A DNA stretch of 64,000 bases, taken from a virus. Shown here piece after piece: positions 44,004-52,129 of the stretch (its first letter is position 1; each line of letters begins with the position of its first letter). The DNA lies in IMG/VR virus record IMGVR_UViG_3300022848_000777, positions 64,001 through 128,000 of that record; one strand, 5' to 3'. Made by a program: the position numbers and the translations under genes. The notes beneath the pieces were generated by a model. The model was not told where the DNA came from and searched no databases. It saw nothing but the letters and a program-made list of their open reading frames with translations.

Positions 44004-44216
44004 ATGGACAAGTTCAATCAGTTAACAGATGAATGTATATCAAGATCCCTTAATTGTTCAATAACTTATCAAAGGATAAACGACTTCTCAGTTGAAATAT
44101 ACAAGGGTTATGGATCTAACTATGGAATAGTATTTTACACCGATGGTCATATTAATCCAAAAAAGGCTATTAAAAAAGCATTACAATTTCTTTCGAAGCG
44201 AACAGGAGTAGAGTAG
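44004..44216 (+). CDS. hypothetical protein
   Basis: 70-aa ORF. Confidence 0.55.
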   Translation: MDKFNQLTDECISRSLNCSITYQRINDFSVEIYKGYGSNYGIVFYTDGHINPKKAIKKALQFLSKRTGVE

Positions 44217-44810
44217 AGAGTGCATCGGAATTAGCAGATGGGGACATAGTTGTAGCATAAATCAACGATATCTATCAGAATACATACATATACCACTCAT
44301 AAAGAGATATTACGAAAACGAGTCATATATGTGTGTTTACGTTATTCATAATTTTAGGGGATTGTTATTATCAGACTAATAATATATCAGTACATTCATT
44401 GCGGATATGACAATCTCCATTAAAAAACAACAAAGGGTATGGTAAGGGTGGGAACACTAAACCATTCAGGAATAGGGTAGCATACTACACATTCTTTTCG
44501 ATTTGGCAAAAAAAATCCAATAGAAAAACTCTATTAGCTGATAGACACCCTCTATCACGTCAATTTACATAGATATTATCTATCACATAGACAGCCTCTA
44601 TGGATATTCCCGTGCCGCAAATCCTGTATTGATAGTATGTAACTGCTGATTATCAGTGAGTTAGACTACTTTGATGGCTTATAGGGATAGAATCAAAATC
44701 GCAATTAGGGCCATCCAGTGGGGTTTCGGTGCATAATTCACTATTTTGGGGTGATTCATATAGATAAATAGTATGAGAATCTGAGCCATCAAAAGAAAAT
44801 GGCTTAATAA

Positions 44811-45610
44811 TTTGGCTATTTCAATTATTATTCGTACCTTTGTAGGGAATTTGGTGTTAATTTTCGAAAATCGGTAGGAATCCAATAATGACTAAAGATT
44901 AATTTGGCCATTTCAACTATTATTCGTATCTTTAGAGGGGGGCTTGATGCTAAATTTATTATAAAACAACCAATACAGGCGATCTATTGGGGTGGAGACT
45001 ACTTTGATGGCTTATAGAGACGAGGAAATTGTTTAGAAATCCAAAATGGCTATATATCACCCTCTGACTATGCTGCGACATCAATAAAATCTATTAGAAA
45101 TCCAATAGAGTGGTGTGATTATCAGTATATTACAGTAATCAGAATGGCATAAGAATCCAATAGTATCTCAGTGCGCCGTAGGAATCCAATAATGACTAAT
45201 TATTGATTTGGATATCTCAATTATTTTTCGTAACTTAGGATGGGATGGTCATGCGACTGAATTATTAATATGGCATGGGAATCCAATAATGACTAAAGAT
45301 TAATTTGGCCATTTCAATTATTTTTCGTAACTTAGGATGGGATGGTCATGCGACTTAATTTGTGATCTGCCGTAGGAATCCAATAATGGCTAAAGATTGA
45401 TAGGAATCCAATAGTGGTTATCTATTAATAGGAATCCAATAATGGCTAAAAATTGATTTGGCCATCTCGATTATTTTTCGTAACTTTGGATGGGACGGTC
45501 ACCTCACGTGTCCAGTTGGGAATCCAATAATGGCTAAAAATTGATTTGGTTAATTCAATTATTTTTCGTAACTTTGGATGGGACGGTCACTACCCGTATC
45601 CCGACCGATC
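44811..45610 (+). repeat. tandem array of six promoter-like units with GGAATCCAATA repeats
   Basis: TTTGG at 44811, 44903, 45207, 45304, 45457 and 45545, each with a -7-like box 24 nt downstream; ten exact AATCCAATA copies in 44514-45529. Confidence 0.9.
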
Positions 45611-45792
45611 GATACATAACAAATTATAATATTATATAACATGAATATATCGATATCATCTATTCGCATTATAAATTAGGTAATTATTGATATTATCCGT
45701 ATATTGCAATGTAAGATTGAGAAATCGTTAAGAGAGAAAGTTAAGAGAGTGTTATTAAGTTTATAAACCACACTAACTAAATTGATTAAACT

Positions 45793-45969
45793 ATGAGAGT
45801 AACAATATCAATCGGAGATCGAATTTATGAGCAAGGAACTCATCGATCAGCACTCATATATGAAGTGATTAGTCCAACTCATAGTGTGCCAGTCTTTGAT
45901 CCTACAGTGGAGCAACGAAGATTATTAAGAATTGAAGTATTGAATTTAGAAACTAATCCAAAACGATAA
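45793..45969 (+). CDS. hypothetical protein (not in the ORF track)
   Basis: 58-aa ORF after the promoter at 45676-45706; TAATG-coupled to the next ORF. Confidence 0.5.
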   Translation: MRVTISIGDRIYEQGTHRSALIYEVISPTHSVPVFDPTVEQRRLLRIEVLNLETNPKR

Positions 45970-49243: not shown

Positions 49244-49284
49244 TTATTATAATATTACAATTGGGTTGTGATAAATAACGTAGG

Positions 49285-49320
49285 TGCCACTCCCCCCAGT
49301 AAGTAAGGGGGGGGGCGGCA
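49285..49320. other. GC-rich inverted repeat with C6/G9 runs
   Basis: TGCC-ACT-CCCCCC-AGTAAGTAA-GGGGGGGGG-C-GGCA. Confidence 0.7.
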
Positions 49321-49502
49321 TTAACGTGTAACCAAAGAAAAAAAGACGCGAACCAAATCGGGCATTATCGACCCCCGTTGTGAGGCTACTTTTTCTCCCT
49401 AGGTAAAACCCTTCTGTAAAGCTTGTGTATCACACAAGCAGTATTTAATTAACAAGCAGAAGCCTTAAAAATAGCCTAAACTAGCTTTTGTTTTTATATT
49501 TT

Positions 49503-49683
49503 GTTAGGCACAGTTTATTATGGACTACGAAGAAAGAGCAGAACACGAAATTGAACTGATAGAACAAGACGAAACATTAAGTGAAAAGAAAAAGTCTCAA
49601 GCAATAGAAGATGTTATACAAGAACTCCGAGAAGAACTCGAAGACCATAAAAACGGTAGGTAATAATTTTTATTGTGCCTAAC
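49503..49683 (+). mobile_element. cassette C1 carrying a 47-aa acidic ORF (49520-49663)
   Basis: GTTAGGCACAGT ... ATTGTGCCTAAC. Confidence 0.8.
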
Positions 49684-49697
49684 ATAAAATAACAGAT

Positions 49698-49982
49698 ATG
49701 AAAAATAGTAATTTAGCATTATACGGAATACAGTCAAATATGGTAGGAGCAGAAACCTACGCACAAGCTGGCGACTTTGAGTTGTCTACGAAAATACATA
49801 TCGTTGATGTCTTATTAGCCAACGGAAGTCATTTACATATAGAATGTAATACTGAGGCACAAGCTAGAAGTATCTTGTCGACTTTATACTACTACTCTGT
49901 TAACGGTAATGATAACAACGTTGTAGAATTTGACTTTGACTTTACATTAAACTACTTGCCGATTGAACTTGCACTCAAATAA
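49698..49982 (+). CDS. hypothetical protein
   Basis: 94-aa ORF. Confidence 0.6.
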   Translation: MKNSNLALYGIQSNMVGAETYAQAGDFELSTKIHIVDVLLANGSHLHIECNTEAQARSILSTLYYYSVNGNDNNVVEFDFDFTLNYLPIELALK

Positions 49983-50363
49983 ACAAATAAACACAATAAA
50001 TTTTTAAGATATGGAAGAATTGCTATTAAAGAATCAATTAGTTATAATGGAAGCTATGGTTAAGAATAGATTCAATCAAGACAAAGATGGATTGATAAAA
50101 CAGATTAAAATAATAAAAGAATTCTTAATTAATATTGAACAAATTTGAATTATGGGTAAAATGACAAAAATGACAAAAATTGATGCGGCAATAAGAGATA
50201 CCACATTATATTTTAGGAGAGCAGAAGAGAGTATAATGTTGCTAATGAGAGAGAAGAAAGTTTTACAAGAAAGGCTTAGTGCTCTTGAAGAGATAAAAGA
50301 TAGCGACCAATATGAATAATTTTTTTGTAACTTTAACGGATTGAATAATAACAAAACTTAATT

Positions 50364-50771
50364 ATGAAATTACACGAAATTATTGAAGTACACGACAAAC
50401 CTTATTTTAGAAAAATGAGAGTAGAGAGTGGATTTATGTACAATTTTTGGGATGTAGAAAAGGATGACTACCAACAAGAATGGACTTTTGTGCCATACTC
50501 AAGCGAACTGGTTAAAAATTTCGAACACCGCATAGATACAACGGTAGGACTTTGGGCAACCGATGGGCCTGATTTAATCACAACTAAAAATACGAGAGAA
50601 GAATCAATAAAATGGTGGGATAGTTTAGGTTCAAACCCATTACTAGGGTTAATTGAAAAAGGTGAATTAACTACTAAGTATTTTGGCCCTGATAGAATCC
50701 CTGAATTATTAACTGGAAGAGAAATTGAAAAAATGTACGTATCTGAAAATGAAGATGACGTATATGTGTAG
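50364..50771 (+). CDS. hypothetical protein
   Basis: 135-aa ORF. Confidence 0.6.
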   Translation: MKLHEIIEVHDKPYFRKMRVESGFMYNFWDVEKDDYQQEWTFVPYSSELVKNFEHRIDTTVGLWATDGPDLITTKNTREESIKWWDSLGSNPLLGLIEKGELTTKYFGPDRIPELLTGREIEKMYVSENEDDVYV

Positions 50772-50799
50772 TTTTTACCCGACTAAATAAAACCGAATT

Positions 50800-51108
50800 A
50801 TGGAAGAATTATTAAAAAAAATAGGGCAGTTGCAGTATGAAATCAGTATATTAGATATTGATGAAGAGACATTAACAGGTGTTGATATTAGAACAGAAGA
50901 ATTAAAAGAGATGATAATCCAAGGGCAAGCATTACCTATAGATAGTGTTAACGTTTCGTTTGAATACGAAATGTTTATAAATGATAAAGGAACACCATTT
51001 GAAATGAACACTTGGATACCAATATCCAACGATAGAATTAAGGATGTTAGCAGGATAGATGAATACATTGAAAACGGTTTATTAAGAAAAATAGTTAATA
51101 AACGCTAA
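50800..51108 (+). CDS. fusion ORF reading into cassette C2 (50947-51109)
   Basis: GTTAACGTTT at 50947 pairs with AAACGCTAAC at 51100; stop lies inside TAAC. Confidence 0.65.
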   Translation: MEELLKKIGQLQYEISILDIDEETLTGVDIRTEELKEMIIQGQALPIDSVNVSFEYEMFINDKGTPFEMNTWIPISNDRIKDVSRIDEYIENGLLRKIVNKR

Positions 51109-51294
51109 CGATTGGGCTATGAATTTTAAAAAATACGGTTATGGAAACTAAATATTATATAGCGATTGGACTTTTATTAATATCGATGGTGCTAACTTTT
51201 TTTGTACCGCTTTGGTTTGAATTAAGAGAGCACAAAAAGTGGATGAAAAGGAACGATTTTTAATTTTTACCCGACTAAATAAATAACTAAACAA

Positions 51295-51567
51295 ATGGTA
51301 GCAATAGAGTATTTTGATAGATATAGTAGCACAGCAAATGAGCCCGATATAATGGGTAGATGGGCAAGAACGGCCATCTATAAAAACATCAGAATAGCTT
51401 GGATAAGTAGAATAGAAAATAAAGATGAAATTATTTTTAGTGTTTCTTGCCATTTCCCAACAATGCAGAACGATACAGCAAACGAACATAAACTATGTTT
51501 TAGTTTGGATGAAGCAAAAGAGTTTGTACAAGATCGCTGGGAATGGTTCTTAAATGAGGTTTCTTAA
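51295..51567 (+). CDS. hypothetical protein
   Basis: 90-aa ORF ending at a left half-site (TAAAC GTTAAGGCTATG). Confidence 0.65.
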   Translation: MVAIEYFDRYSSTANEPDIMGRWARTAIYKNIRIAWISRIENKDEIIFSVSCHFPTMQNDTANEHKLCFSLDEAKEFVQDRWEWFLNEVS

Positions 51568-51642
51568 ACGTTAAGGCTATGTGTAGTGCCAAAATTTTAA
51601 AATAAAATTAGGTAGTTCAACATATTATTCGTATATTTACAA

Positions 51643-51980
51643 GATGTATAGAAGTCGGCAGCGAATCGACTAATACATTACAGACATTCTTGTACGTCCA
51701 ATAGCCTTTGTGCTGTATCGCTCGGAATGTTTAATTGAAAGCCGCTAGAGAGGGTTCTTAGAAAGCGGCACGGGTTTGCGAAAGGAACGCCCACTAAGAA
51801 GGTTTATTACACAACCTATAGAGTTCTGAGCATCGGATTGTAATTAAACGAAGCACCTAATAACGAAGGCTCAATGAAGGTTAAGCATATCGTTTAAAGG
51901 TATCGCCCTACGTAGTTTCGCAACGAACTTCTTAGGGATTGCTATACCTTTAACTCAGGTCTAAATCAGGTATAGCATAG
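51643..51980 (+). ncRNA. candidate structured non-coding RNA
   Basis: Promoter (TTAGG 51608, TATATTTA 51632), no ORF of 60 aa or more, raised GC and at least seven helices. Confidence 0.6.
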
Positions 51981-52129
51981 TATTTAAAGTGTACACTAAC
52001 TAGTTTTTCTTTAGATTGGGTGGTAATTGTAAAAAATTACAACAATAAACTTGTGTAGTATAATTTAATTGATTACATTGGTCAAAGATAAGGGGGAAAC
52101 TTAACCCAATAGTGAATTAAATTAAATAA

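Follow-up and report, generated by a model that had tools for sequence, protein, structure and literature searches.

A candidate structured non-coding RNA gene in the cassette array of a T4-like phage genome

Within an array of integron-like cassettes in a phage genome, a promoter is followed by several hundred nucleotides of DNA that can pair with themselves in many ways, raising the question of what this locus encodes. It belongs to a window of 64,000 nt taken from a virus record of 174,750 bp (G000; ~90% complete), where the window occupies bases 64001-128000. An initial annotation had taken the locus for a novel non-coding RNA, possibly a conformational switch and possibly cargo or machinery of the surrounding cassettes. 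The reading we prefer, and to which we give an even chance, is that of a stand-alone structured non-coding RNA gene, rare and accessory, that would have inserted into the hypervariable region of a T4-like phage of the Bacteroidota.

The phage and a promoter followed by no gene

The record encodes capsid, portal, sheath and terminase proteins of T4 type, and all long ORFs of the genome lie on the plus strand. The closest cultured matches to its capsid are Mel-JY01 (61%) and Flavobacterium immuto phages (52.5%), and the relatives, together with the promoter type, indicate that the host is probably a member of the Bacteroidota. The nearest cultured capsid match (L239, PP395634.1) was deposited as a Microcystis phage and groups by capsid similarity with Bacteroidota-type phages; its host label may deserve checking. 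The genome carries 27 tRNA calls (one of them within a GOLLD RNA), a tmRNA at G000 137241-137635, which is the sole tmRNA position returned by ARAGORN and Rfam, and the GOLLD RNA itself, found by the RF02032 model at 184.7 bits, along with RNA repair genes for RtcB, an RNA ligase and a poly(A) polymerase-family enzyme. The GOLLD RNA spans ~880 nt (L115:12267-13146, G000 139267-140146) and has an internal tRNA-like part.

Other RNA-like features were seen in this phage and in the records compared with it. A ~75-nt tRNA-like unit, often in two or three copies and uncalled by ARAGORN, recurs at L022:4307-4782, in L061, L070, L075, L078, L082, L083 and L086, and at G000 ~138910-138990. Two related phages (L021:4211-4740 and L025:4056-4481) hold in their tRNA islands an unannotated RNA-like stretch of ~430 nt with an internally repeated module; the same promoter type lies upstream of it as upstream of the candidate RNA at 51644-51980, and a search of Rfam at the gathering threshold, made in L021, gave no match. 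A short motif with two CCCGAA words recurs in tRNA islands, and one copy lies within a cassette site (L167:6370-6500; G000 ~135890-135920; L022:3605-4039; L075:2164-2884).

The promoter at the locus of interest (51608-51639, plus strand) is of the Bacteroidota sigma-A type, with a -33-like box at 51608 and a -7 box at 51632-51639. Its initial identification is supported genome-wide: it belongs to a motif family with 26 matches on the plus strand versus 4 on the minus strand, 24 matches share an identical 30-nt span and spacing, and the tRNAs and GOLLD of this phage are preceded by a promoter of the same family. As the flavobacterial -7 box is located at -12 to -5 (PMC9723704), transcription is predicted to start at 51644. 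Position 51608, previously given as the start of the element, therefore marks the promoter, and the RNA itself would start at ~51644, where its first hairpin begins.

From this predicted +1, the candidate RNA extends on the plus strand to 51980 (~337 nt), with a 3′ end that probably falls between ~51954 and 51985. The stretch contains no ATG-started ORF of useful length, as had been noted before, and each of the six frames holds 6-11 stops of mixed type, which shows that it is neither recoded nor an obviously decayed frame; the decayed coding sequence that the initial annotation had offered as the alternative has left no trace. GC content is indeed above that of the flanks (41.8% versus 26-34%), at a level that ~1% of genome windows reach. 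Downstream of the promoter no ORF occurs for 650 nt, and the next one lies ~320 nt beyond the candidate RNA, past a cassette site, and has a separate promoter at 52243. Five further assemblies of this phage carry the sequence without any variation, which excludes an assembly artefact.

Self-complementarity and predicted folds

All nine helix pairs of the initial annotation are present in the sequence, eight as perfect complements and one (51682/51725) with a G-U pair. The candidate RNA contains six perfect Watson-Crick helices of at least 8 bp versus 0.79 in dinucleotide shuffles (p 0.0005), and none of 518 genome tiles is as extreme, by a statistic that was picked post hoc. Two overlapping helices of at least 10 bp, also a post hoc statistic, arise at a rate of 0.04% in shuffles, and 4 of 3476 genome windows contain such a pair. 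The folding z-score is modest (-2.1 on the plus strand, -2.2 on the minus strand and -1.5 for 51643-51980), and it does not discriminate, since it is similar on both strands and similar to the scores of the tmRNA (-1.5) and GOLLD (-1.8) of the same phage, two RNAs that have no excess of perfect helices. Strong helices number 10 on the plus versus 6 on the minus strand, a difference that is owed to G-U pairs and is weak evidence. These statistics show non-random self-complementarity, not RNA function.

In folding ensembles, whose models leave pseudoknots out, the RNA opens with a 5′ hairpin of two stacked stems (51643-51679; pair probabilities 0.65-0.94, local z -3.3). Helix 51720-28/51823-31, with closing pair probabilities of 0.5-0.67, encloses hairpins at 51741-69, 51772-92 and 51800-17, whose stems reach 0.9-1.0 and one of which bears a GAAA tetraloop, and a long-range helix of 9 bp with one G-U (51703-11/51863-71) closes the compact fold, state A. 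The initial annotation lacked these two stronger pairings and also a loop match of 8 perfect pairs between 51776-83 and 51916-23 (duplex -8.1 kcal/mol) that may form a kissing, or loop-to-loop, contact; two of the annotated helices, although correctly located, are minor in the ensemble (51682/51732 at ~0.3 and 51844/51897 at <=0.14). Segment 51794-801 can pair with 51755-61 or with 51928-35. All of these elements lie on the plus strand, as do the two helices at the 3′ end.

There, two helices of 10 perfect pairs compete with each other: helix A (51894-903/51944-53), which encloses a hairpin at 51906-51937, and helix B (51940-49/51968-77), a terminal hairpin with a weak U-rich tail, at which no canonical terminator was called. 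For chains that end at 51954-51970, helix A has a probability of 0.8-0.9 and the long-range helix 51703-11/51863-71 one of 0.76-0.96; the latter falls to 0.01-0.02 once the terminal hairpin is complete, and helix B stands at 0.87-0.99 in full-length chains. When folding of a growing chain is modelled, helix A and 51703/51871 form together until B is complete, and a local hairpin at 51855-51901 then replaces both. The full-length ensembles with A forced (-91.7 kcal/mol) and B forced (-93.5 kcal/mol) lie 1.8 kcal/mol apart, in a class of predictions, those for 340-nt RNAs, where near-equal alternative folds are common. The models predict, then, two global folds within 2 kcal/mol and competing 3′ helices that are coupled to the core. 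The conformational switch proposed in the initial annotation is computationally possible and would be more global than was noted there, but the 3′ hairpin may simply be a terminator or the 3′ end.

Such coupling resembles the way in which an aptamer is joined to an expression platform, and it could place the locus among cis-acting two-state leaders of the attenuator or riboswitch kind, a reading that we consider rather unlikely. The core with helix A would then be the read-through state and hairpin B the terminating one, and a ligand or protein that stabilises the core would let transcription enter the downstream cassette array or a gene since lost. The joint formation of helix A and the long-range helix in transcript prefixes, their collapse upon completion of B and the small gap between the full-length ensembles are all consistent with a leader. 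However, the stretch up to the next cassette, itself served by a promoter of its own, holds no ORF, the U-rich tail is weak and no terminator was called there, known riboswitch and T-box families gave no match, and alternative folds so close in energy are frequent at this length. More doubtful still is a phage RNA of a new family with two global folds, in which a relay of overlapping helices would switch during transcription, the RNA serving either to sense a ligand and control the cassette array or to act in trans in two states.

Under the stand-alone RNA gene that we prefer, host sigma-A polymerase would start at ~51644, at a promoter whose match to those typical of this phage is clear and whose use we infer. 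The transcript would fold as it is made into the 5′ hairpin, a three-hairpin junction (51720/51831, 51703/51871) and a 3′ arm closed by helix A, a fold that the 51776/51916 loop contact might lock, and terminal hairpin B with its U-rich tail would mark or protect the 3′ end. By analogy with GOLLD and ROOL, for which such roles have been proposed, the stable RNA would act in trans during infection, most likely serving a factor of the host or the phage as scaffold or decoy.

The surrounding cassette array

The integron-like cassette array at window positions 49470-57270 is real, and a half-site profile was built from 45 sites. The candidate RNA is flanked as initially described. On its left, a site half at 51563-51582 (plus strand) scores 11.2 bits by the left-half profile, within the range of array half-sites, and has no right half. 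On its right, a complete attC-like site at 52129-52190 (plus strand, both halves 17 bits) opens the mobile cassette 52187-52659. Both sites lie outside the RNA. Half-sites of the array score 11-21 bits (left) and 12-18 bits (right), whereas the best inside the RNA reach 6.6 and 2.9 bits, and no right half-site occurs between 51567 and 52129, where 2.9 bits is again the best.

Units of this array open with GTT and a short word and close with the complement of that word and AAC. Because a right half-site and complementary ends are both missing from the interval 51570-52128 (there is an end at 52129 and no matching start), it is not a cassette by the rule of the array. Moreover, the cassette 52187-52659 is present in many other phages with the same start base, behind different unrelated genes, 11 phages have different sites and genes after the upstream 90-aa ORF, and the candidate RNA never adjoins either of them in other phages. 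Its lack of complementary ends, its position behind a truncated left half-site and the occurrence elsewhere of both neighbours without it argue against the proposal that it is cassette cargo. Rather, the promoter-plus-RNA unit seems to have taken the place of the right-hand part of the site at 51567. The site hairpin 52129-52190 itself travels with the downstream cassette in L161, L171, L173 and L175 and is replaced in L163, L166, L167, L169 and L170, and this comparison of arrays suggests exchange at both ends of a site.

Being situated between a left half-site and a full site of an integron-like array, the RNA might still serve the cassette recombination machinery in a guiding or structural role, or be carried in a genuine gene cassette. 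We regard this as highly improbable. The longest match between the RNA and a site is 9 nt, a length that >90% of shuffles reach, and the rest of the genome holds no match of at least 13 nt. No tyrosine recombinase, IS110, TnpB or reverse transcriptase was found in G000 (~90% complete), 38 other cassette-bearing phage records have no match to the RNA, and its ends are not complementary. The role in cassette machinery that the initial annotation had suggested thus found no support in site complementarity, recombinase content or co-occurrence, and the RNA would stand outside the cassette recombination system.

A link of another kind to the array may lie in hairpin B. Both of its arms match the inner box of the cassette sites, ranking in the top 0.4% and 0.09% of genome positions (as one event), and if the hairpin is a decayed site, then the competition between A and B would be incidental. 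This leads to an alternative that we hold to be unlikely, in which the locus is a decayed or composite non-functional remnant: a phage promoter placed before the leader of a lost gene, an unselected foreign RNA gene or pieces of cassette sites. Hairpin B would be a degraded attC-like site, with the overlap of A and B accidental or derived from a local inverted duplication. In keeping with decay, the stretch comes after a half-site that is truncated, in an array where broken sites abound, the overlapping helices share a short palindromic A/T word, and no conservation was found. Yet hairpin B is without the outer AAC/GTT boxes of cassette sites, the half-site scores inside the RNA fall short of those of real half-sites, the promoter is intact, several perfect GC-containing helices persist, and none of the frames bears the mark of a former gene.

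Apparent rarity of the element and its possible likeness to known phage RNAs

Homologs of 51644-51980 were found in none of ~100 related phage records, cultured phages, plasmids and 401 Bacteroidota genomes, by searches of limited sensitivity, as exact patterns miss diverged copies and most phage records are fragments. BLAST gave no match in cultured phages (INPHARED) or plasmids (PLSDB) and matched only the promoter in sets of 48 and 55 phage records; the 401 genomes, from the class of a Bacteroidota MAG, had no match either. The RNA was not found by nhmmer in 2.9 Mb of fetched loci, and pattern scans of viral contigs, metagenome contigs and GTDB genomes returned only chance matches in unrelated or coding DNA. 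Three single-sequence covariance models, barely more sensitive than BLAST, were run with the 5′ part against 59 records, the core against 77+27 and the 3′ part against 80, and matched only the phage's own genome, also over three INPHARED relatives. One weak covariance-model hit (E 0.025) was rejected, as it sits in a reading frame. The genome itself contains no paralogs of the candidate RNA.

The closest relative, 75% identical in the neighbouring AAA ATPase, could be followed for ~41 kb, from 10 kb upstream of the ATPase to beyond GOLLD. It retains the tRNA order, the tmRNA (73%), GOLLD (83%) and, behind the ATPase, a non-coding element, and its syntenic stretch gave no match to the candidate RNA and few to the surrounding small ORFs. 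From the absence of homologs at this search sensitivity, the element appears to be accessory and rare, or to have diverged beyond the reach of the searches.

The non-coding element directly after the AAA ATPase (window 49244-49500; also L118:9600-9870 and L123:1760-2020) is conserved: nhmmer finds it in both closer relatives (E 2e-18 and 1e-5). It contains a conserved GC-rich hairpin with some two-sided changes across the three sequences, with no Rfam match. It is a better-supported candidate for an ncRNA or DNA element than 51644-51980.

The distribution also bears on whether the locus acts as DNA. A transcription-primed origin or a single-strand folding signal, with the promoter supplying an RNA for a primer or R-loop in the manner of T4 origins, would account for a promoter and an ORF-free structured stretch in a T4-like phage, and the DNA fold has a z-score of -1.9. 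We find this very improbable: the locus is absent from the syntenic interval of the closest relative, which is unlikely for an origin, its long G-U-containing helices and tetraloops fit RNA better, and a better candidate for an origin exists in the conserved, repeat-rich non-coding DNA at ~44200-45800. This long non-coding region (window 44217-45792) contains clustered direct repeats that look like promoters, is conserved in part in the closest relative and is a candidate replication origin or genome end region.

Among known RNA families we found no home for the element. Rfam at the gathering threshold and at E up to 10 gave only chance hits on the bare stretch. There was no match to RNase P RNA or a group I/II intron core (E up to 10), to any riboswitch or T-box family or to HEARO in the stretch, and the GOLLD model RF02032, which covers the conserved 3′ domain, and the ROOL model did not match the candidate RNA, which at 337 nt is also shorter than the ~580 nt of ROOL. 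A T-box-like word at ~52020 was dismissed, since it comes with neither the remainder of that motif nor a match in Rfam, and tmRNA identity was rejected, as there are no tRNA-like ends and the tmRNA of the phage lies elsewhere. Among partner proteins of RNA-guided or RNA-binding systems, RT (retrons), TROVE (Ro60 Y RNAs), TnpB and IS110 (bridge RNAs) were not found in G000, at ~90% completeness. With its own promoter, no ORF, non-random self-pairing and no Rfam match, the novel ncRNA of the initial annotation is plausible but unproven.

For the stand-alone RNA gene speak the promoter family of the tRNAs and GOLLD, an ORF-free stretch structured from +1, GC in the genome's top 1%, the post hoc helix excess, a z-score like those of the tmRNA and GOLLD, and a phage that already carries many RNA genes. 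Against it stand the lack of a homolog, the absence from ~41 kb of the closest relative, the location outside the tRNA island, the want of a canonical terminator, a z-score of only -1.5 to -2.1 that is alike on the other strand, and many mutually exclusive helices, for which one fixed architecture has no need.

If expressed, the RNA would add a smaller, uncatalogued example to a standing puzzle, that of GOLLD and ROOL, large folded phage RNAs that are abundant and ornate and have no known job. It would do so in a phage that carries GOLLD itself, and could be made and probed in vitro, where two coupled folds are the prediction. Drawn from a single sequence of an uncultivated phage with no homologs found, its value is that of a lead. 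A screen of intergenic regions in IMG/VR returned 10,006 viral candidate RNAs, with motifs of only 30-151 nt (PMC10690425).

Several known systems invite comparison. The terminal hairpin resembles the inner box of attC-like sites (integron attC, CALIN), but the candidate is without their outer boxes, three times longer and multi-branched. With attenuators and riboswitch platforms it would share a 5′ fold linked to a pair of mutually exclusive 3′ helices, of which the final one is followed by a U-rich tail, and it differs from them in having no downstream controlled gene, a weak tail and no match to a known aptamer. Phages can also carry pseudoknotted RNAs of 300-400 nt, namely tmRNA, RNase P RNA and group I introns, which the candidate may resemble in size and in a possible long-range pseudoknotted core; unlike group I introns, it is not inserted in a gene. 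The closest likeness may be to GOLLD (RF02032) and ROOL, large pseudoknotted RNAs that phages carry, frequently close to tRNA islands, and whose function is unknown (PMC5737381; 10.1101/2024.12.08.627333). Unlike them, the candidate matches neither model, measures ~340 nt where ROOL averages 581 and GOLLD often exceeds 800, and lies within the cassette array, outside the tRNA island and ~15 kb upstream of the first tRNA; unlike this phage's GOLLD, it is not kept in the closest relative. Like them, it is phage-encoded and ORF-free, with multiple predicted stems and candidate pseudoknots and loop-loop contacts, and it shares its promoter family with the GOLLD of its own phage. By this analogy, it would be an RNA of the GOLLD/ROOL kind and a member of neither family.
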